Positions 3,695-61,875 of a DNA stretch of 64,000 nt are shown piece after piece (position 1 is the first letter of the stretch; each line of letters begins with the position of its first letter). The position numbers and the translations under genes are program-made. Source of the DNA: a virus (Duplodnaviria; Caudoviricetes); IMG/VR virus record IMGVR_UViG_3300002220_000519, positions 21,407-85,406 of that record. One strand, written 5' to 3'. Under the pieces are notes generated by a model. That model saw only the letters and a list, made by a program, of their open reading frames with translations. It was not told where the DNA came from and did no database searches.

Positions 3695-4015
3695 CTACTT
3701 GCCCTTGGCCTCTTCGAGCGGAACTTCCTGGGAGCTGGTGCCCACGGCTACGCCATTGATCTTGACTGAGTAGCGGGTGACCACGAATTTCCCTTCCAGT
3801 TCGAAAGTGGCGTCCTTCAGGGCTCCGGAGTTGACTGCCTTCCGGATGTTGCCGGCGAGGTTCCGATCCTGGAAGCTGAGAGGGTGGTTGGTCTCGGTGT
3901 TGTCCTTGGCGACCGAGACGGCTCTGAAGAAGCGGGGCTGGCCATCGCTTTGGGCGATACCGCTCAGCGGATCGGGGCGCAGGGATACCTGGAAACTGGT
4001 TTTCTGACCGTCCAT
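3695..4015 (-). CDS. RNAP-A-linked small beta-rich protein (paralogue of 7774-8112)
   Basis: RBS AAGGAGG; DPLSGIAQSDGQPRFFRA motif; directly downstream of RNAP-A. Confidence 0.75.
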   Translation of the reverse strand: MDGQKTSFQVSLRPDPLSGIAQSDGQPRFFRAVSVAKDNTETNHPLSFQDRNLAGNIRKAVNSGALKDATFELEGKFVVTRYSVKINGVAVGTSSQEVPLEEAKGK

Positions 4016-4034: not shown

Positions 4035-6476
4035 CTAGGATTCCTGATTCATATGATCAGGTTTGTTTTCCAAGACAAGAGAGCATTCGGCAGGGGGAAG
4101 GACTGCGGGCAAGGGAGCGCTTAGATTATGCGCTAAGTAGTCGGACATACGCTCTATGGCTCCTGTGCAGGCGTAATGCCGAACGAGGCCCGGCAGGTTG
4201 TCTAAGGCCGTTCCGCCATATACCCTGTTCGCGAGTTCTCCCGGTCCGAGTGGTGCGATCAGTGTGAACAGGAAGTCGCTCATCTTGGATGTAGCTATGA
4301 CCTGTCCAAATCTCACTGCCACGGACACTCGATCTGTTACCGGTAGAGCGCGTACTTTAGCCGCAGCTTCGTAGACTGCTGTGAAGCTTGGCTTGCTTGG
4401 TTGGCGGCCGGTTAGGGCGTCCCCAGCTGCGTATGCAACTGCGTCTCGGAATGCGTCCATGAGGCCCTTGGCGATATCTTCTGTTACTGTGCTAAAGGCC
4501 ATCACGGGTTCTGCCATGATCTTTTGTGCGAAGCCGGCTCTGTCGAATGGTTGCTGCTCGACTATCTCGAAAGCGGGCAAGTTTCCGAGTAGGTTGTGCA
4601 CCCATCCAGTTAAGCATAGATCCCATGTCTTATCCGTATGGGAGACGTGTGATTTCCAGGTTGCGTCTATGCTGCTGTAGTGCTTTACTCGGGCGTTCCA
4701 GTCGAGTGCTGCCCGGCCCATTTCCTTGTGTAACCATGGCATTGTGGTTGGGAACCCCAGCGTCTTTAAATACCCTCTGACGCTACGCATGATACTTCTT
4801 GCGTCGAAGTCCCCGTTCTTGGTTGCCTGTATCGACATGTGGTAGGATTGGGCAAGGATATCTTCTGCATATGACAAGTCTACCCCTGTGCACTGAACGA
4901 TACAGCGTATAAGAGATAGCATGTTGCAGATGGTGCCGACTGATGCGCCACTGGCTTGTGTCTTGTAGGCATCTTCGTAGGCTGTGGTTACTACCCTGCC
5001 AGTTCCTTTGGTCATATCGAGGTGAGGCTTAGGTGAGGTTTTGAGTTTGAAATTGTAGATGAATATAGTGTCACCGTCGAAATCCCCGTTATGGAACTCT
5101 TTCCAGTCTTCGGGGTTAACGTAGGCCGCGTGATCTGGGGCGGTATTTGTTCTGAATGTGTAGTGAACCTTGTACTGCCTGATCTCCGACTTCTGATTGA
5201 TAGGGTACCGCACTACTGTGACGGTCTGGGGGCGACCAAATGCATTCCAGGCTTTGCGGGATAAGATGATGTCACCTCTCCTGCATTTGGCAGACGGAAG
5301 AGCCAGCGCGGTGTGGCCCTTCTCTGTGTAGAATCCTTTTCTTAATTGATTGGCATACCAATGGGCTGCCTGCCAGGTTGCTCTCTGACAGGTTGGGTGT
5401 GTATCGGCTGTGGCCCCGGCTGCGAATAAGAATTCAGCCTGCATACGAAGCTCACGATTAAGTCCGTCTTCGGTAGGGATGTTACCTGGTAATAGGTCGA
5501 ATGCATCGTGCACTTTTAGGATCTTTTGCATTGCGTAGCTGTCACCGAGGATAGCATCTTGTAAGTCCGTAACTAGAGGCACGAGTTCGGCTTCAACTAC
5601 TTCTCTCCAGTTGTCGCACAGGCCAAGCAGTTGATAGGAGAGATTACATCCTATGCGATAGAACCAGTCTGAAACAGAAACCAGGCGGAATTCGGAAATC
5701 TTGAAGGTGTGCTTGCCTGGCTTGCGTGGTTCTCCCTTGTCGTTGCCGTTCCAGTATAACAGCTCTCCTGGTTCATCGGTGTTGGGGTCAAGGTAGAAGA
5801 CTACCTTGCTTGAGTGTGGCCATATACCTGAAAGCTTGATGGCCGTGGGTAAATGGATAACTTGTCCTTCCTCGTTGATCATCTTGTCGAGATTATAGGC
5901 TGCTACCATATTGGCCATAATCTTCTTGCTTACGCGCATACAGCCGTCGAGACTCGGGTGTTCTTCGTCTGTAACGACTACATCGAATGCATACTCTGAT
6001 TGTGGTAATATGGCTGGTTGGTGAGAAACTCCGGCGGCTTTGGCATTTGACCATGGCACTTTGACTTGATCGTTGATGCCTACCAATAGTTTCCAGTCCA
6101 AGGCCATTTGCTTGGGGGTTGGTAGGATAACAGCGTTTGGGCCAACCTGTTTGTGGATCTGGTCCATTACATCTGTTGGCGTGTCGTTGTTGATCGGGGC
6201 TGGAACTTCATACCACCAGGAAACTTCAGGTTCGCCATTTGTATAGTTGAGCAGGCCGTTTGCGCCTCTCGTGTACCCGCTGTTCTTTCTGAGTACTGTG
6301 ACTACCTTAATTGTCTCCGAATGTTTAATTACATAGTCACGGACCCAAGAATCCCGTACACCCTTGATTTTTGCACGCTTATTTGAGTCTGGGTCGTTGA
6401 GCAGCACCAGAGGATCTTCTTCCCAAACCAAGTAGTTTGGGCTATCCTGTGTAGCCATAGGGATCTTCAGTCCCAT
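4035..6476 (-). CDS. Single-subunit two-barrel RNA polymerase A (YonO/QDE-1-like), 813 aa
   Basis: Ordered motifs LDGC, SKVVF, NDKG, NLSYQLL, TVTVVRYP, HNGDFDGD (5070-5090), VGTICN, MSIQATK; RBS AAAGGAG. Confidence 0.85.
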   Translation of the reverse strand: MGLKIPMATQDSPNYLVWEEDPLVLLNDPDSNKRAKIKGVRDSWVRDYVIKHSETIKVVTVLRKNSGYTRGANGLLNYTNGEPEVSWWYEVPAPINNDTPTDVMDQIHKQVGPNAVILPTPKQMALDWKLLVGINDQVKVPWSNAKAAGVSHQPAILPQSEYAFDVVVTDEEHPSLDGCMRVSKKIMANMVAAYNLDKMINEEGQVIHLPTAIKLSGIWPHSSKVVFYLDPNTDEPGELLYWNGNDKGEPRKPGKHTFKISEFRLVSVSDWFYRIGCNLSYQLLGLCDNWREVVEAELVPLVTDLQDAILGDSYAMQKILKVHDAFDLLPGNIPTEDGLNRELRMQAEFLFAAGATADTHPTCQRATWQAAHWYANQLRKGFYTEKGHTALALPSAKCRRGDIILSRKAWNAFGRPQTVTVVRYPINQKSEIRQYKVHYTFRTNTAPDHAAYVNPEDWKEFHNGDFDGDTIFIYNFKLKTSPKPHLDMTKGTGRVVTTAYEDAYKTQASGASVGTICNMLSLIRCIVQCTGVDLSYAEDILAQSYHMSIQATKNGDFDARSIMRSVRGYLKTLGFPTTMPWLHKEMGRAALDWNARVKHYSSIDATWKSHVSHTDKTWDLCLTGWVHNLLGNLPAFEIVEQQPFDRAGFAQKIMAEPVMAFSTVTEDIAKGLMDAFRDAVAYAAGDALTGRQPSKPSFTAVYEAAAKVRALPVTDRVSVAVRFGQVIATSKMSDFLFTLIAPLGPGELANRVYGGTALDNLPGLVRHYACTGAIERMSDYLAHNLSAPLPAVLPPAECSLVLENKPDHMNQES

Positions 6477-7773: not shown

Positions 7774-8112
7774 TTATTCAGGCACGCAGGTGGCAGTCCC
7801 CCGACCCAGCACCAAATCCTGGCCGATATCGAAGACCTCGCGGACCTCGATGGCTTTCCTGGTGATCGGGATGGTGACGGTCTCACCCTTGGCCGACGCA
7901 GCGATCAGCTTGTCCCTGAGCTGGCCACCGATGGACTTGGCAGCGAAGCTGATGTGCAACCGGCGACCGTCCGGGAGCGTGGCCTGGAACAGGTAGGGCC
8001 GACCGTCTTTGAAGTTGATGCCGCTCATGGGATCGAAGGACAGAACGGCGTTTACGGACGCTTCGGCCAGCACCTGGGCGCCAGCCTGGAACTTCTTGGT
8101 GAAGTTGCTCAT
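7774..8112 (-). CDS. RNAP-B-linked small beta-rich protein (paralogue of 3695-4015)
   Basis: Start reassigned to ATG 8112 (RBS AGGAG); DPMSGINFKDGRPYLFQA motif. Confidence 0.75.
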   Translation of the reverse strand: MSNFTKKFQAGAQVLAEASVNAVLSFDPMSGINFKDGRPYLFQATLPDGRRLHISFAAKSIGGQLRDKLIAASAKGETVTIPITRKAIEVREVFDIGQDLVLGRGTATCVPE

Positions 8113-8351
8113 GGTAAGGTCTCCTAATAGAAGTTTAAAAGTTGACATACGCTCTGAGTGAGCTATGCCAAAACAAGTGAGTATTCGGCTAGGCTAGAGA
8201 CTTCGGCTAGGATAGACTGCAGGCTGGGGGGCCGGCAATCCTCTCCCTACGCATACGAGTTTAAATAGCTAGTGTATGACTACCTGGTTATAACCTAGTT
8301 GCGTTTAGTCTTCTAAATATGAGCGCCTGTCACGTTTGTTTTGTGTTGTTG

Positions 8352-10634
8352 TTACTTTTTGAATATGTTGTTAGCCAGAATGAACTGGTCAGGATAGGCC
8401 TCGACCAACTTCTCTGGGGTTAGTGTGTTGCAGGCTAAGCGTGCTAATCCCACGTGCCGCCAATCCATGAATGACCACATCTTTAATGTGTTACTCTTGG
8501 CCAGCTTGTAGCCCCACCTAAAGACGAGTTGCAAGTATACTTCGGGAGTAATGGTTACTTGTGTTAAGCCTGTAGCAACGCAGATTAGTCTATGGGTTTT
8601 GTGGTCTCTGGTCCACTTGCCAGGTACCCAGAATCTCCCGCCCTTACGTGCTGCTGCCTGTAGCCTGCGGAACTTGGAGAATGCCTTAGTGTTGTCGTGG
8701 TTCTCGAGTAGGTTCTGAGCAGCCTGACCAAAGATAGTATTGAAGAACTCGAATACTAGCTCTGCATCCTGATTGGGGGCCTTCAGGTACACACTATAGA
8801 AGCTCTTCGCCAGTATTGAGCGGGCCTGGTCTGTAATGCTTGGTATAGTTGGTAGGGCGGCAATCTTCTTCAACATATTGGTGCGCACGAAGTTGTCCCA
8901 CTCTTTACCAAGGTTAGCCATAGTCTTAGTCTCTGTTACCCTGGTGTTCCACGCCTCAAGGATGTTGTTCTTGGATACCTGCCACTTCTTTTGTCTCCAG
9001 AAGCAGCCTCTGATGTTGAAGTTCTTGCGCGCGTAGTCCCTAATGTCTCTAACGACATCATCACCACCTATGTCCATATGCTTGATGGCCTGGATGGACA
9101 TATTATAGGCGACCCCTGCGTTATTGATTAGCCCCTTAAGGTCAGCACGGTCAAAGGCCGTTTCTAACCCTATAGCTAGTTCCTGAGCTAAACACACACG
9201 CCCGATCTCCTTATATGCAGCCCGTGTTTCTAAGAACTCCTCATAAGGAGTGAGTGCCTCTTTGGCACCCTTCGCTATGGTTGGCATGGTCATCGTACCA
9301 AAATCCTTGGGCTTTAACGGCAGGTTAATGACAAAGATCAGATCCTTGTCAAAGTCCCCGTTATGATTGGTGCGCCATGAGTCAGGGTTAATACTTACTG
9401 TGTGCCAGCTAACCACCTTGTACTCAACTATTTCCTTCGGGCCATTGAGCGGGTAACGGACAACCCATACAGTGGCCGGGTTCCCCATTTTACGCTGGAC
9501 ATCAAGTGGCAGCCCTATTTCGTTGGGCTTTATAACGCGTGACGGTAGGGCTATCTCCATGAGTCCTACGTTCTTCGGCAGTGGAACCCCGCGAGATAGA
9601 TCTCTGGTTCTGATGCCCAGCAGTGTGACTGTGAAGTTGGCAAGTTCAGGTGAGAGCAACGGATTGCCGCCATTTTCGATGGCAAAGCGGGACATGGTCA
9701 GCCGATCCGCCCAGCGCGGGTTGACGAATGTATCGACTTCTGGATCGTAGTTTTCGTCGAACATAAACGTCTCACCGAGATCTATCAAGTCAAGTATGTC
9801 TGGTTGGATGTGTTCCATGTAATACTCCTGAATCTCCTCGGTCGTCCTGCCCGCTGGTACACCTGTTGACAGATAGTTTGCAACTGCTGTAATTTTGGTC
9901 ATCCAGGGCGCACCAAAGCGCTCGATAAGTTGTGTTCCATTTACTAGCAGCTGTGTTACCATGTGAGACAACCAGATACGATTAGTAGAGTAGTCATCAC
10001 CGAGTGCTACTAGCCTGAGGTCTCTGATGTCAAAGGTGATTGTACCCTGACGTTTGACACCCTTGTCGTTGCCCTTGAATGTAATTATGCTGCCCTCTAA
10101 GCCACGCTTGAAGACTATCTTTGTGCAGTTGGGCCAGATACCAGCAAACCCAGCAGCGTCTATGTTGCCTATTCTGTTCTGTGACACACCATACGCCTCC
10201 AAGATCTTGTCGAACAGGCCCTTTGGGATTGTGGTACAGCCGTCCTCGGCCCCTTCTTGCACGGTGTCTACTATCTCGGCGTCGAACTTGATTGGTACCT
10301 GGGTTGCGCGGCCAGGTTGTTGACTGACAGCTAAGGCTTTGCTACTGTCAATTGGGGCCTCTAGCGTTGGGTTCTTGGTAACCCAGACCAGCCCGGCCTT
10401 CATATCCGTCTTGCTCGTCCTCAGGAATCGTTCGCCTGGTTCCAAGACGCTCTCAGCTACATCCAGCGACACCTCAGTATGGTATTTGCTAATCTCTATA
10501 CCAACAGGTGTGTGGAAGAGCTCTTGTCCAGTTATACGTTCCCTAGTCACATGGTTAGCAACCAACCAGGCTGCCACGTGGCTGTTGACCGCGCCGAAGG
10601 GCTCAGTCTTGCGAGAGATATTAGTGTAGTTCAT
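8352..10634 (-). CDS. Single-subunit two-barrel RNA polymerase B (YonO/QDE-1-like), about 760 aa, DFDKD variant
   Basis: Motifs EDGC, TKIVF, NDKG, WLSHMVTQLL, TVWVVRYP, HNGDFDKD (9342-9362), MSIQAIK; probable start ATG 10634 (RBS AAAGGA); ORF is open to 10709. Confidence 0.8.
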   Translation of the reverse strand: MNYTNISRKTEPFGAVNSHVAAWLVANHVTRERITGQELFHTPVGIEISKYHTEVSLDVAESVLEPGERFLRTSKTDMKAGLVWVTKNPTLEAPIDSSKALAVSQQPGRATQVPIKFDAEIVDTVQEGAEDGCTTIPKGLFDKILEAYGVSQNRIGNIDAAGFAGIWPNCTKIVFKRGLEGSIITFKGNDKGVKRQGTITFDIRDLRLVALGDDYSTNRIWLSHMVTQLLVNGTQLIERFGAPWMTKITAVANYLSTGVPAGRTTEEIQEYYMEHIQPDILDLIDLGETFMFDENYDPEVDTFVNPRWADRLTMSRFAIENGGNPLLSPELANFTVTLLGIRTRDLSRGVPLPKNVGLMEIALPSRVIKPNEIGLPLDVQRKMGNPATVWVVRYPLNGPKEIVEYKVVSWHTVSINPDSWRTNHNGDFDKDLIFVINLPLKPKDFGTMTMPTIAKGAKEALTPYEEFLETRAAYKEIGRVCLAQELAIGLETAFDRADLKGLINNAGVAYNMSIQAIKHMDIGGDDVVRDIRDYARKNFNIRGCFWRQKKWQVSKNNILEAWNTRVTETKTMANLGKEWDNFVRTNMLKKIAALPTIPSITDQARSILAKSFYSVYLKAPNQDAELVFEFFNTIFGQAAQNLLENHDNTKAFSKFRRLQAAARKGGRFWVPGKWTRDHKTHRLICVATGLTQVTITPEVYLQLVFRWGYKLAKSNTLKMWSFMDWRHVGLARLACNTLTPEKLVEAYPDQFILANNIFKK

Positions 10635-10684
10635 TGGGTTCCTTTCGATTTGTTTGAAATTGTTTGTTTGAAGTTTAGATCTCT

Positions 10685-11068
10685 TTAGATCTCTTCTGCC
10701 GGATTCCAACCGTCTATGTTGAAATCCGGGGTGGTCATTGGTGCATCCAGTGTAGCCTCAGCCGTGCCGAGATAGCAGCACAATACCGAGTGCTGTATTT
10801 CGAACGCGGCCGGCCTATTGATGATGAGCCAGAAGGGCTCATACACACCAGCGGCTACCTGTCTATCGGCTGGTCTTAGGAACAGTCCATTCTGTCCATT
10901 GAGCAGTCGGCCGCCCTTCACGGCAAAGACGTTGTTAAAGGTCAGGTCTATTACGGCGACCTGTTTACCGATTGGTGTAGGCAGCCTTGTAATGGCCACC
11001 TCGGTCAACACTAGCCCCACTGGGAGACTAGTGATGGCCTTGCTTAGTCTGTGGATTTCTTTAGGCAT
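10685..11068 (-). CDS. spoVG: SpoVG-like nucleic-acid-binding protein
   Basis: LTEVAITRL...AVIDLTFNNVFAVKGGRLLNGQNGLFL...EIQHSVLCCY follows the SpoVG pattern, including GQNGLF; RBS AAGGAG. Confidence 0.7.
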   Translation of the reverse strand: MPKEIHRLSKAITSLPVGLVLTEVAITRLPTPIGKQVAVIDLTFNNVFAVKGGRLLNGQNGLFLRPADRQVAAGVYEPFWLIINRPAAFEIQHSVLCCYLGTAEATLDAPMTTPDFNIDGWNPAEEI

Positions 11069-11372
11069 GACCTTCTCCTTCAAAGATGTTTAATTGTTGT
11101 AATTTTTGTGGCTCCTGTCTGCTTCCTCCTGGTTTCCAGCCGGGTCGTGTTCTTCTTAGCACCATGGCCTTCTCCCAACTTGTGAGACCCCTAATGGAGA
11201 GCAGTTGGTAGTTCAGCCACGTTCCGTTCAACCACATCCCGTTCATCACTATGACCTTGTTTGTGACGTGGTTGACACTGACTTTGAAACTATAAGCGTC
11301 CCCCACCCTCTTGACTGCCCAGAACGACTCTATAGCCTCAAGTAGCAGGTGCCGGTATTCTATGACTGCCAT
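11061..11372 (-). CDS. Hypothetical protein
   Basis: Start reassigned to ATG 11372 (RBS GAGGAGG). Confidence 0.55.
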   Translation of the reverse strand: MAVIEYRHLLLEAIESFWAVKRVGDAYSFKVSVNHVTNKVIVMNGMWLNGTWLNYQLLSIRGLTSWEKAMVLRRTRPGWKPGGSRQEPQKLQQLNIFEGEGHA

Positions 11373-12574: not shown

Positions 12575-13380
12575 TTATGAACAGGCTATACAGCTCATGC
12601 ATCGACTAGGTTATGCGATCCTGTCGAAGTTAATGGCTGGCTGTATTAAGCACGCCACATGCTTACTGTCATAGTCTACTAGGGAGACCAGCTTCTTATG
12701 ACAGTGTCGTTGCCCAGCGGTACTAGCAGCCATGTGTCAGTTAAGATAGTATGGGATATGGCCTACAGATTTAGTGGTCTATGGTTGTGTCATAGCCACT
12801 CGTGATAAGGCATATAGATTACAAGGCTATATACCTGAGCTACACCTGATTATAGCATTACCGTCTATGATCGTTGGGCGTTTATCTCCCTCTTTTAGGG
12901 GTAACATTCGCACCTACTAGACCATGATTTATAGTGAGAGAATAAGGCTCACTATTGTTCATCAGCCTTTGAGGTTGCTATGCTCTATGACTGACGACGG
13001 AGTTATTATTGCTAGACATTATTAGGGAGGTTGTTACTACCTTATGACCTCGAGATCCCTTGGTCCTCTCCTCCTAAGATACCCTAGAATGTCACTCATG
13101 TTGAGACTACATCTTTCAAGGACATGTCTTCCTTGATTGATACCCATATGGGCCTGGCATACTTAAATGCTCAGCTGCATTTTAGGGACACCCGGGGGGC
13201 TCGAAACCCTAGGTTAATTCCCTTATTATTCTACTATGGTCTCAGCAAATCATTTCGTTTTTCCGGAAAATCCCTATAGAATTTTCCAAAAATCCCGGCA
13301 GCAGTCCCCAAAAAACCCCCAAAGTAATTCCAAGATTTCACCATTCCCTATCAGCTTACTTAGGTAGTCATATACTGTAG
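12575..13380. other. Long non-coding divergence region; possible genome end, packaging site or origin
   Basis: No ORF of 60 aa or more on either strand; CCCGGGGGG at about 13191-13199 followed by phased A/T/C runs at 13256-13325. Confidence 0.45.
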
Positions 13381-13385
13381 GCCTA

Positions 13386-13414
13386 TTGACTTTTAAGGTA
13401 AAATGTGGTATAAT
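13386..13414 (+). promoter_or_regulatory. Consensus sigma70/sigmaA promoter with extended -10
   Basis: TTGACT-17 bp-TATAAT preceded by TGG. Confidence 0.85.
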
Positions 13415-16070: not shown

Positions 16071-16344
16071 GGTACAGCTTAGTAACTTTATTGAGATGAA
16101 CCCACACCTAACCGCTGCGGAGCTTCTCCCCCTCCTAGAGTCGCAAGTAGAGGGTTGTACGGCTGTTGAGCGCTATTGTATTACAGAGACGTCACCACAC
16201 GAATATAAGATTAGCCTTTTAGCGGCCGTACCTAGTGTAACACCAACCAGCCTTAGCTTTATACTACTACCAAAGACAGAAACTGTAACACGAGAACAAC
16301 TATTCAAGAATAGACTTAAAGAGGGTAAAGGTTGGGATGATTAA
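16036..16344 (+). CDS. Hypothetical protein
   Basis: RBS GGAG; overlaps both neighbours. Confidence 0.5.
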   Translation: MSPMLQALLDLKVQLSNFIEMNPHLTAAELLPLLESQVEGCTAVERYCITETSPHEYKISLLAAVPSVTPTSLSFILLPKTETVTREQLFKNRLKEGKGWDD

Positions 16345-16984
16345 AGCCTTCCTACCAATATCTTTTGTAGACTGGGACGGGCATGTTGTCTCCGTGATAT
16401 TTATTGGCGGCTGTAATTATAATTGTCCATACTGCCATAATGAATGCCTTGCTCAAACTCCAGATAGACTTGAGACTATGGGGTTTGAGGACACAATAGA
16501 CCAACTTCAGAGATATGAAAAGTGGTTGGCTGGAGTAGTAATTACAGGTGGAGAGCCAACACATGACATAGGTCTTCCTGTTTTACTTAGAAAGATTAGA
16601 GAGCGCGTACCGGCCTGTCGTATTAAACTCGACACCAATGGATCGTATCCAGCTCGACTTAAGCTTCTAGTTGAACAAAGGTTGGTAGACTATATCGCGT
16701 TGGATGTGAAAGGGGACCGAAGTTACTATACTGAAGTGCTCGGTGTTGATGCTGAACCGGTCTTCGAAAGTATTAAGTATGTTATGAACTGCGGGCTATC
16801 ATATGAGTTTAGAACAACATATTACCCAGCTGTTAATCTTGAAAATGTTGGAAAGCTTATTAAAGGCGCCGAGCGTTGGTCTATACAGAGACTTGTGATT
16901 GAGCAGCATAGACAAGATTTTGTACCAGTAGAGAAACTAGAATCCGATAACGCACACTTTGTTAAAACACTAAAAATTAGATAA
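16337..16984 (+). CDS. nrdG: Anaerobic ribonucleotide reductase activating radical-SAM protein
   Basis: SFVDWDG..IFIGGCNYNCPYCHN (CxxxCxxC), VVITGGEPT, KLDTNGS, DYIALDVKG, YEFRTT. Confidence 0.9.
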   Translation: MIKAFLPISFVDWDGHVVSVIFIGGCNYNCPYCHNECLAQTPDRLETMGFEDTIDQLQRYEKWLAGVVITGGEPTHDIGLPVLLRKIRERVPACRIKLDTNGSYPARLKLLVEQRLVDYIALDVKGDRSYYTEVLGVDAEPVFESIKYVMNCGLSYEFRTTYYPAVNLENVGKLIKGAERWSIQRLVIEQHRQDFVPVEKLESDNAHFVKTLKIR

Positions 16985-60171: not shown

Positions 60172-61875
60172 ATGAGTGACATACCAGATATAATGGGGCC
60201 ACAGACACTAGGCGTCAATGAACAATCTCTAACATCTTATAAGTATGACTGCTTTGCAGGCGCACAGGTTTCAGTATTTGTAGATAATATATGGGTAGAC
60301 GATGTCGTCTCTATCCAGTTTACAGTTACGGAACCAAAGTCTCCTATATATGGTTATGCTAGCAGGTTCTACGATCTTGCTGCAAGTGGTAACAGGATTA
60401 TACAGGGACAGCTAGCAATTGCATATACCGAAGAGGGCTATCTAACTACTATTCTTAACCAACGTAGAAAAAATCTATATGGTTCTGACTCGGTAATAGA
60501 TAGAACTACTACTTCAGGAAGCCCACTGGCAACAATGTCTGAGGTCGGCGGCCCAACTGATTTATGGAAGACAGCGGATGGTGGGCTTGATAATACTAAG
60601 TTACAACAGGTTGGCGCCGAACGTAAGCGACTTCTTGGTCTTGCTGAGGGTGCACGCCCCGCAGACTACACTACACAACTCAAGCGCATAGAAGAAGAGT
60701 ACGCGCGGCTTATACAAATAAGTCTTGGAAAGCAGCCGGCAACTCAATCATACACAAGAAGTACTATAAGAGATTTACTTGGTGACGAGCGAGGACTTTC
60801 TAACTATGAAGATCTTGCAGAATTAATGGAAGACGCGCAGTTAGATCCAACAAAGCTTAAGGCGCTAAAAGAGGGAGTTAAGTGGTCTGTTGTTCGTGGT
60901 TATAAGGGAGAGTATAGATTACGTAAAGCCCTTGAGTTTGATCTAGAAGAAGGCCGTACAAAAGAATCTGTACCGTTTAACTATATTGGTGACGGCTTTG
61001 ACATGATAATTATGTATGGTGATTTTAGTATTGGTAGTGCAGAGCATACATTAAAGGTATTAAGTGATGTTCATTTTACATCAGAAGGTCAGGTTGTAGA
61101 AGCCAATGGTAACCCCATTATTGAAGTATATACATTTTTCGCCAGGGACATAGGAGACACGTCACACTTATATAATCCAAAAACTGGACTAGCTAATAGT
61201 ACTAATGTGGGTGGGAACGCTTCTGGAAAACCCGCAGAGAGCAGTGAGCTTGTTACAATGGTTGTACTAGAAGCATATAATAAACTAGCATCTGGTGCGC
61301 CTGGCCAAAAAGTATTAGAGCTTGAGTACCCAGTAAGAATGGCTACACCATCAGTTAGCTTAAGCCCGGTTGTAAAGTTGGACTCTTCGCTACCACAGTT
61401 AGCTTATACAGCGGATAGCTATGAGTCTGATGTTGAGGACATAACTTTCGAAAAGATAAGCTTTTCTACAGCATACAGAGCTGCCAAGTCTACACACGAC
61501 TCTATAGTAATACCTACTGCTGGTTTAATGAGAATTATAAAAGCCACCAACGGTCGTACCGAAAAGATAATGCTAAGTGATAGAACCCTTGCTGCACGCA
61601 CCATTACAAAATTCAGGGTAGTTGTAAGCTATACTGGTGGTATTACTAATGAAGAGACACTAGAGAACGACACACAATCACGAGACAAACAAATAACTTT
61701 TAACAACTATTTGGATACCTATTTGTGGGGTGATGTAAAAGACTACATGAAAGGTATCCGTAATAGTCAACCACTTAAACCGTACACCATTACTGTGTAT
61801 GCTCTATGGAAAGATGGAGCTGATGCTTATGGGTCTGAGCAAGAAAAGCAGATATACAGTAAAACCTACACGTAA
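60172..61875 (+). CDS. Tube-like paralogue with insertion and C-terminal extension
   Basis: FAGAQVSVFVD..SIQF..PIYGYAS..GNRIIQGQL..FDMII..EVYTFFARDI. Confidence 0.65.
   Translation: MSDIPDIMGPQTLGVNEQSLTSYKYDCFAGAQVSVFVDNIWVDDVVSIQFTVTEPKSPIYGYASRFYDLAASGNRIIQGQLAIAYTEEGYLTTILNQRRKNLYGSDSVIDRTTTSGSPLATMSEVGGPTDLWKTADGGLDNTKLQQVGAERKRLLGLAEGARPADYTTQLKRIEEEYARLIQISLGKQPATQSYTRSTIRDLLGDERGLSNYEDLAELMEDAQLDPTKLKALKEGVKWSVVRGYKGEYRLRKALEFDLEEGRTKESVPFNYIGDGFDMIIMYGDFSIGSAEHTLKVLSDVHFTSEGQVVEANGNPIIEVYTFFARDIGDTSHLYNPKTGLANSTNVGGNASGKPAESSELVTMVVLEAYNKLASGAPGQKVLELEYPVRMATPSVSLSPVVKLDSSLPQLAYTADSYESDVEDITFEKISFSTAYRAAKSTHDSIVIPTAGLMRIIKATNGRTEKIMLSDRTLAARTITKFRVVVSYTGGITNEETLENDTQSRDKQITFNNYLDTYLWGDVKDYMKGIRNSQPLKPYTITVYALWKDGADAYGSEQEKQIYSKTYT

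Follow-up and report, generated by a model that had tools for sequence, protein, structure and literature searches.

Glycine-to-lysine replacement in the catalytic loop of a predicted second single-chain RNA polymerase of an uncultured tailed phage

Introduction

In the RNA polymerases (RNAPs) that transcribe all cellular genomes, no element is more conserved than the DFDGD loop. A stretch of 64,000 nucleotides from the IMG/VR virus record IMGVR_UViG_3300002220_000519 (hereafter the window, to which all unprefixed coordinates refer) encodes two putative RNAPs, of which RNAP-A carries this loop, whereas RNAP-B reads DFDKD. What does a lysine mean at this position? An initial annotation of the window had proposed that RNAP-B is conditionally activated, for instance after delivery with the virion, or that it has altered substrate use, and had called RNAP-A conventional. 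The only lineage without the glycine described before is the giant virion RNAP of crAss-like phages, which is hard to handle. Here we report two more natural replacements, Lys and Gln, in enzymes of ~760-850 residues. Their family, which is very rare and unannotated, consists of single-chain RNA polymerases that occur in pairs in uncultured phages of ~210-225 kb. On balance we lean towards the view that RNAP-B is an active second phage RNA polymerase in which the Gly-to-Lys change is tolerated and possibly modulatory.

Results and discussion

Two paralogous genes with different catalytic loops

Both loops were found on the minus strand with the codons that the initial annotation had assigned to them:

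8352-10634, minus strand: RNAP-B gene, 760 aa from the ATG at 10634 (open reading frame list and translation, public gene calls, ribosome-binding site, AlphaFold2 model)
9342-9362, minus strand: catalytic loop of RNAP-B, NGDFDKD, residues 450-456, with the Lys455 codon AAG at 9345-9347; aligns with DFDGD of the paralogue and relatives
4035-6476, minus strand: RNAP-A gene, 813 aa, paralogue of RNAP-B (AlphaFold2 model, see below)
5070-5090, minus strand: catalytic loop of RNAP-A, NGDFDGD, residues 463-469

The reverse complement reads AAC GGG GAC TTT GAC AAG GAT in RNAP-B and AAC GGG GAT TTC GAC GGT GAC in RNAP-A. The RNAP-B reading frame stays open up to a TTG at 10709 (8352-10709, minus strand), from which the product would have 785 aa. 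The ATG at 10634 is the likelier start, because it is preceded by the ribosome-binding site GAAAGGAA and because public assemblies call the same start (M26, 760 aa). Residue numbers of RNAP-B nevertheless follow the 785-aa version, in which the loop lysine is K455.

The two proteins share 27% identity over ~470 residues (E 6e-37) and their loop motifs match column for column. They are paralogues from an old duplication, and the likeness of the motifs is therefore not due to chance. Sequencing error could be dismissed as a source of DFDKD as well, since the DNA of the region is 100% identical in three further contigs from different samples, since a change from Gly (GGN) to Lys (AAG) takes two base changes, and since DFDKD recurs in an RNAP-B orthologue (B2) of 47% identity from another metagenome.

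Predicted folds identify both proteins as two-barrel RNA polymerases

Neither protein had a match in Pfam at E <= 1, including the eukaryotic-type RNA-dependent RNA polymerase (RdRP) family PF05183, and PHROG, NCBIfam and PDB sequence searches retrieved nothing. Likewise, tblastn at E 1e-3 matched neither of them to any of 50,697 phage records (INPHARED). The predicted structures, however, gave consistent matches. The AlphaFold2 model of RNAP-A, with a predicted local distance difference test (pLDDT) of 72 and a predicted template modelling score (pTM) of 0.69, retrieved maize RDR2 (E 6e-14) and QDE-1 (E 4e-12) in Foldseek; VIA, an aligner independent of Foldseek, superposed it on the P23-45-type non-virion RNAP gp64 at Z 17.9 over 516/595 residues. 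RNAP-B retrieved the same families with weaker scores, namely maize and Arabidopsis RDR2 (E 5e-9) and QDE-1 (E 2e-7), and also P74-26 gp62, P23-45 gp64 and gp96, and phi14:2 gp66 (E 2.9e-4). With VIA, RNAP-B aligned to RDR2 (Z 13.7, 389 residues aligned), QDE-1 (Z 12.5, 301 residues aligned), P23-45 gp96 (Z 12.2, root-mean-square deviation (rmsd) 3.1) and phi14:2 gp66 (Z 7.4, rmsd 7.6), and its residues 374-467 matched the beta-prime barrel of cellular multi-subunit RNAPs (msRNAPs) at Z ~11. The RNAP-B model has a mean pLDDT of 59, with values of 70-90 across residues 130-310 and 340-470. Comparisons with BFVD and the ESM Atlas agreed with the RNAP fold, PF05183 being present in 15-100% of the members of the ESM Atlas neighbour clusters. 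The fold matches of both models thus support the earlier assignment of RNAP-A and RNAP-B, as far as predicted structures go, to the single-chain two-barrel RNA polymerases of the QDE-1/RDR/phage clade.

Further landmarks of such enzymes were located in RNAP-B:

9444-9461, minus strand: VRYPLN, which contains the R-x-P motif of the beta-prime-like second barrel; R418 and P420 do not vary within the family
10050-10073, minus strand: GNDKGVKR, a candidate for the basic loop of the beta-like first barrel, placed solely by its motif and position
9072-9098, minus strand: SIQAIKHMD, helix that follows the catalytic barrel; 8/8 sequences share Q540 and K543

R418-Y-P420 lies 32 residues before D452-F-D454-x-D456, and in RNAP-A as in RNAP-B the barrels follow one another as they do in QDE-1 and RDR2, R-x-P preceding DxDxD. 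The pattern G-N-x-K-G-x-x-(K/R) is kept across the family and falls in the first-barrel region of the RNAP-B model, while the candidate for a first-barrel Asp (DGC motif) is Asn in one sequence of the A clade described below. The model shows a long helix at residues 522-541, and SIQAIKHMD may represent the equivalent of the bridge helix. Altogether, the eight family sequences agree without exception at R418, P420, D452, F453, D454, D456, Q540 and K543, so that the retention of the three loop aspartates, noted at the outset for RNAP-B, holds throughout. In QDE-1, the triad is D1007, D1009 and D1011, and R-x-P is R962 and P964. The first barrel of two-barrel RNAPs further has one invariant Asp and two invariant basic residues (QDE-1 D709, R738 and K743), for which the DGC and G-N-x-K-G-x-x-(K/R) motifs are the candidates here.

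What RNAP-B lacks is the glycine at the fourth loop position, in whose place stands Lys. Two-barrel RNAPs have eight invariant residues, among them R-x-P and the three Asp, but not the loop Gly (PMC2919709). Because the glycine lies outside these defining residues, the lysine leaves the membership of RNAP-B in the two-barrel superfamily unaffected. Gly was nevertheless found in all RNAPs studied before gp66 of phi14:2, those of the eukaryotic QDE-1/RDR2 type included (Drobysheva et al.). Two seeming exceptions among phiKZ-like phages appear under a non-virion RNAP profile in PMC10770324 (Supplementary Data 4), which gives DFDED for Erwinia phage PhiEaH1 (AGX01743.1) and DFDTD for Vibrio phage pTD1 (BAW98338.1). 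We traced these motifs to residues 9-13 and 90-94 (KF623294.1, 21854-21868, and AP017972.1, 137600-137614, respectively), before the N-terminal Cys-rich zinc motif, and rejected them as precedents: they are regular-expression artefacts, not catalytic loops. The near-invariance of the loop glycine, which the initial annotation had stated alongside the DFDID of the phi14:2 virion RNAP, therefore stands. Neither Lys nor Gln occurs at the fourth position in the table of Supplementary Data 4.

The lysine is confined to one branch of the RNAP-B clade

When 1.84 billion representatives were searched exhaustively with phmmer, only six family clusters emerged. The contigs around these clusters contributed two further members, giving eight distinct sequences. 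Scans of IMG/VR returned only the own record of one phage already found (the DFDQD phage, see below), and no new family members came from scans of JGI metagenomes or from searches with a word-based profile and with short fragments. By the count of these searches the RNAP-A/B family is very rare; since phmmer missed one of the B-type sequences (L016B), it is larger than listed.

A maximum-likelihood tree of the eight sequences separated four B-type from four A-type enzymes with 100/100 support. The B clade consists of two pairs, one formed by RNAP-B of the window and B2 (100/99), both with DFDKD, and one formed by the enzymes L007B and L016B of two related phages (100/98), which read DFDGD and, in one case, NADFDGD. 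In the A clade, three loops are DFDGD and one is DFDQD. Conservation of DFDKD across the RNAP-B clade, which the initial annotation had left to be checked, was thus not found: it occurs in 2/4 sequences that form one subclade, and the deeper positional orthologues carry Gly. Equally, the description of RNAP-A as conventional applies to the enzyme of the window and not to A-type enzymes in general. By parsimony, Gly would be ancestral in both clades, Lys would have arisen once inside B, and Gln independently inside A; on this tree, DFDKD is a late, lineage-specific change and not a hallmark of the RNAP-B paralogue.

In the window phage and in the phages represented by contigs L007 and L016, a SpoVG-like gene is followed by a B-type and then by an A-type gene. 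The Gly-bearing B genes are regarded as positional orthologues on account of this SpoVG-like upstream gene and of collinear flanks.

The DFDQD enzyme, an A-type protein on a long branch (1.29), belongs to the phage IMGVR_UViG_3300001580_000006 (223,464 bp, 94% complete; our contigs L008, L019 and G001). There, the flanking genes are kept without a B gene between them, and genes for an RNase H-like and a DUF488 protein occupy the B site; B was either lost from this locus or never present there. The family profile at E <= 10 detected no second copy in the record, and no msRNAP beta-prime domain was found, while positive controls matched 14/14. A search with PF00940 (T7-like) was also made, in which none of the control genomes matched. 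As the DFDQD enzyme is thus the only detectable RNAP of its own phage, it speaks for functional non-Gly enzymes in this family. A reading frame with DYDPD, the only other D[FY]DxD in the record, was considered as a second RNAP of this phage and discarded, having no match to the family profile at E <= 10 and none in PHROG. This Ser/Thr-rich frame of 830 aa (L021:1818-4310, equal to G001:C1:69317-71809) has R-N-P-Y-P 12 residues upstream of the motif and no homologue in the 85-kb record of the window phage; its DYDPD probably arose by chance, in what would be a structural protein.

The loop is conserved in a fast-evolving protein

The two Lys-bearing orthologues are 47% identical overall and 73% identical in the 41-residue window around the loop, which is the maximum for the protein. 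Across the 13 codons of NHNGDFDKDLIFV, they differ by 4 synonymous and 0 non-synonymous changes. In this single comparison, the loop, Lys included, bears the mark of purifying selection. Random substitution under relaxed selection, the condition that the initial annotation had set against its own proposal, thus describes the data only in part: the position does vary between G, K and Q across the family, but constraint on the loop is evident inside the K subclade. Four copies of the window phage were available, and their DNA is 100% identical, so that dN/dS within the phage gave no signal. Among the eight sequences, no correlated second-site change is visible alongside Lys.

RNAP-B evolves ~2.6x faster than RNAP-A between the same pairs of phages, as judged from path lengths in the tree (3.25 for B vs 1.22 for A between L007 and L016; 3.86 vs 1.47 between the window phage and L007).

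Both genes lie in a non-structural block behind a putative host-type promoter

The IMG/VR record to which the window belongs has 85 kb and is 55% complete; the same phage is present as a contig of 210,996 bp. It has portal, sheath and capsid-like genes. Up to ~12,600 the genes of the window point leftward, and from ~13,650 they point rightward. RNAP-B is gene 7 of the leftward block, and RNAP-A follows three small genes later in the same orientation. Both are free-standing among small non-structural genes, and RNAP-B is neither fused to nor beside virion genes. Known virion RNAP genes lie within the structural module, to which RNAP-B does not belong. The neighbouring features of interest are:

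10685-11083, minus strand: SpoVG-like small gene directly upstream of RNAP-B; weak match to PF04026, 30% identity to L007:5270-5563
7774-8148, minus strand: first gene downstream of RNAP-B, ~124 aa; orthologue at L007:10293-10709
3695-4015, minus strand: first gene downstream of RNAP-A, 106 aa; weak paralogue of 7774-8148
12849-12857, minus strand: TGCTATAAT, putative extended -10 site of sigma-70 type, heading the leftward block that holds RNAP-B and then RNAP-A

A SpoVG-like gene directly precedes the B-type polymerase in 3/3 B-bearing phages (the window phage, L007:5270-5563 and L016:5543-5815), and its product is a candidate for a B-specific factor. The products of 3695-4015 and 7774-8148 are 26% identical over 85 aa (E 2e-6) and matched nothing in PHROG. 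Since both polymerases are followed by weakly paralogous genes, the unit of duplication may have been a cassette of two genes. The DFDQD enzyme in L008 is also followed by a gene for 106 aa, which showed no similarity to these downstream proteins. In L007, a PcfJ-like gene (PF14284, 587 aa, L007:8438-10201) stands between the B-type and A-type genes and has no counterpart in the window phage.

The motif TGNTATAAT occurs 13 times in the window against 3.5 expected (~3.7-fold), a count reached in 0/100 shuffles, and several copies have a good -35 element and lie 25-40 nt upstream of gene starts. Examples are found at 13406, 14519, 30676, 32065, 46227 and 60139 on the plus strand and at 12857 on the minus strand, one of them preceding the capsid-like gene at 60172. 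From this enrichment and placement, many genes seem to be transcribed by the sigma-70 RNA polymerase of the host even though the phage has two polymerases of its own, and the site at the head of the leftward block suggests that the host enzyme also reads both polymerase genes. Such transcription would fit enzymes made after infection, as YonO is. Exact and 2-mismatch k-mer enrichment in the intergenic DNA of the 85-kb record revealed no other promoter motif for A or B. At the start of the rightward block, a radical SAM gene lies among small genes (16337-16984, plus strand; PF04055/PF13353, public gene call).

What the lysine may mean

We consider it somewhat probable, on these data, that RNAP-B works as a second polymerase despite its lysine. 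An old duplication would have produced RNAP-A and RNAP-B, both kept in at least three related phages, with B as the faster-evolving copy. On the branch to one B subclade, Lys would have replaced the ancestral Gly at a position that appears non-essential in this family, where G, K and Q all occur, in contrast to the unchanging Asp triad, R-x-P and remaining invariant residues; once fixed, Lys would have been held by purifying selection. Its effect would most likely be modulatory, through an altered loop geometry or local charge beside Mg-A, and the changed loop may shift the affinity for metal or nucleoside triphosphates (NTPs) without switching the enzyme off. Both polymerases would most likely be produced after infection, with the host RNA polymerase reading their early-type block, and would then transcribe different sets of phage genes. 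Several points weigh against this account. The model of RNAP-B is only moderately confident, given its mean pLDDT; the conservation of Lys amounts to one comparison, as only two K-bearing sequences are known; and the faster rate of B would also be expected of a decaying or neofunctionalised copy. The part of the phage that was read comprises 85 kb of ~211 kb, and as no phage-specific promoter motif was found, a division of the phage genes between A and B is presumptive. Finally, in the known phages with two RNAPs of their own (N4, phiKZ, AR9 and P23-45; PMC7598289), one of the two is packaged, so that virion delivery still has to be reckoned with.

Delivery of RNAP-B with the virion, or another conditional activation in which the non-Gly loop holds the Asp triad inactive until release, is the idea with which the initial annotation began and follows the proposal made for gp66. 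In the crystal of gp66 (PDB 6VR4), the loop is inactive and held by a cleft-blocking domain; the enzyme is active in vitro, and all three Asp of its DFDID are required (Drobysheva et al.). Besides this precedent, the paralogous pair of P23-45, of which one member is packaged, speaks for the idea. Yet 2/4 enzymes of the B clade have DFDGD, so that the role of the paralogue is independent of a non-Gly residue, and the P23-45 virion RNAP itself reads DFDGD, which means that non-Gly is no mark of virion enzymes. RNAP-B, at ~760 aa against 2,180 aa, also has no identified counterpart of the cleft-blocking domain of gp66, and the related, 94%-complete phage does without B. The location of the gene in a block of small non-structural genes, near and co-oriented with A and behind a sigma-70-type site, is weak evidence against packaging. 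We found nothing in support of virion delivery and regard this reading as improbable. Somewhat less improbable, though still unlikely, is a lysine that gives RNAP-B an altered chemistry or substrate use, such as another metal preference or affinity, primer- or RNA-templated synthesis, or a changed NTP selection. Lys would place a positive charge beside the Mg-A carboxylates, it is conserved amid synonymous changes, and the nearest solved folds, QDE-1 and RDR2, are described as accepting RNA and DNA templates (PMC9508822). However, another lineage has Gln here and the deeper orthologues of B have Gly, which argues for tolerance rather than a designed new chemistry, and no second-site change accompanies the lysine.

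RNAP-B might also be a dead or decaying copy, either a pseudo-enzyme with a structural or regulatory role or a gene on its way to loss. Its fast evolution, the related phage without B and the near absence of non-Gly loops elsewhere would agree with decay, but the ~760-aa frame is intact, all family-invariant residues including the Asp triad are present, the loop is the most conserved part between the K-bearing orthologues with synonymous changes only, and a B gene stands at the same position in three phages; we judge decay to be quite improbable. Just as doubtful, in our estimate, is a distinct catalytic regime in which Lys, and Gln in the sister lineage, pairs with the Asp triad, replaces or gates Mg-A, and leaves the enzyme self-inhibited until a partner relieves it. 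The relieving partner might be the product of the conserved SpoVG-like gene, the ~110-aa protein encoded by the paralogous gene downstream, or else the template. If true, a two-barrel RNA polymerase would here carry its own switch, within a small, free-standing protein amenable to expression and study.

The family offers a natural series of Gly, Lys and Gln in small two-barrel polymerases that lend themselves to expression; close Gly-bearing paralogues and orthologues provide built-in controls, so that the role of the glycine is directly testable by swap mutants. A non-Gly loop is an unreliable sign of a virion enzyme.

Comparison with known systems

The top Foldseek matches of both proteins are Neurospora QDE-1 and plant RDR2 (PF05183), at E 6e-14 to 1e-10 for RNAP-A and 5e-9 to 2e-6 for RNAP-B. 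The window enzymes differ from them in that identity is only 10-14%, that Pfam RdRP gives no match and that QDE-1 and RDR2 have Gly at the fourth position. As the genes are carried by a double-stranded DNA phage, DNA-dependent transcription would be expected of RNAP-A and RNAP-B.

YonO of SPbeta is likewise a single-chain two-barrel phage RNAP (~100 kDa) with the Asp triad kept; it is not a virion protein and transcribes late genes. SPbeta, however, has a single such gene and no pair, and the tblastn search with A and B matched no phage record of INPHARED.

The RNAPs of P23-45 and P74-26 (gp64/gp62, PDB 8F72 and 8F5M; gp96, PDB 8H2M) are the best structural match of RNAP-A and match RNAP-B too. 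P23-45 resembles the window phage in having a pair of paralogous single-chain two-barrel RNAPs, derived there from an old duplication as well; the pair described here is also found in L007 and L016. Sequence similarity between the two systems is not detectable. Moreover, gp96 is fused to the tape-measure protein, whereas the genes of the window are free-standing, neighbouring and non-structural, and one of them encodes DFDKD.

Closest in the feature that raised our question is gp66 of the crAss-like phage phi14:2, the sole two-barrel lineage described with a non-Gly fourth position (DFDxD), to which RNAP-B shows a weak fold match. However, gp66 is packaged in the virion, contains the cleft-blocking domain and is encoded with structural genes, unlike the much shorter RNAP-B in its non-structural block. 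Furthermore, a non-Gly residue is general in the gp66 family, while in the RNAP-A/B family it is confined to sublineages.

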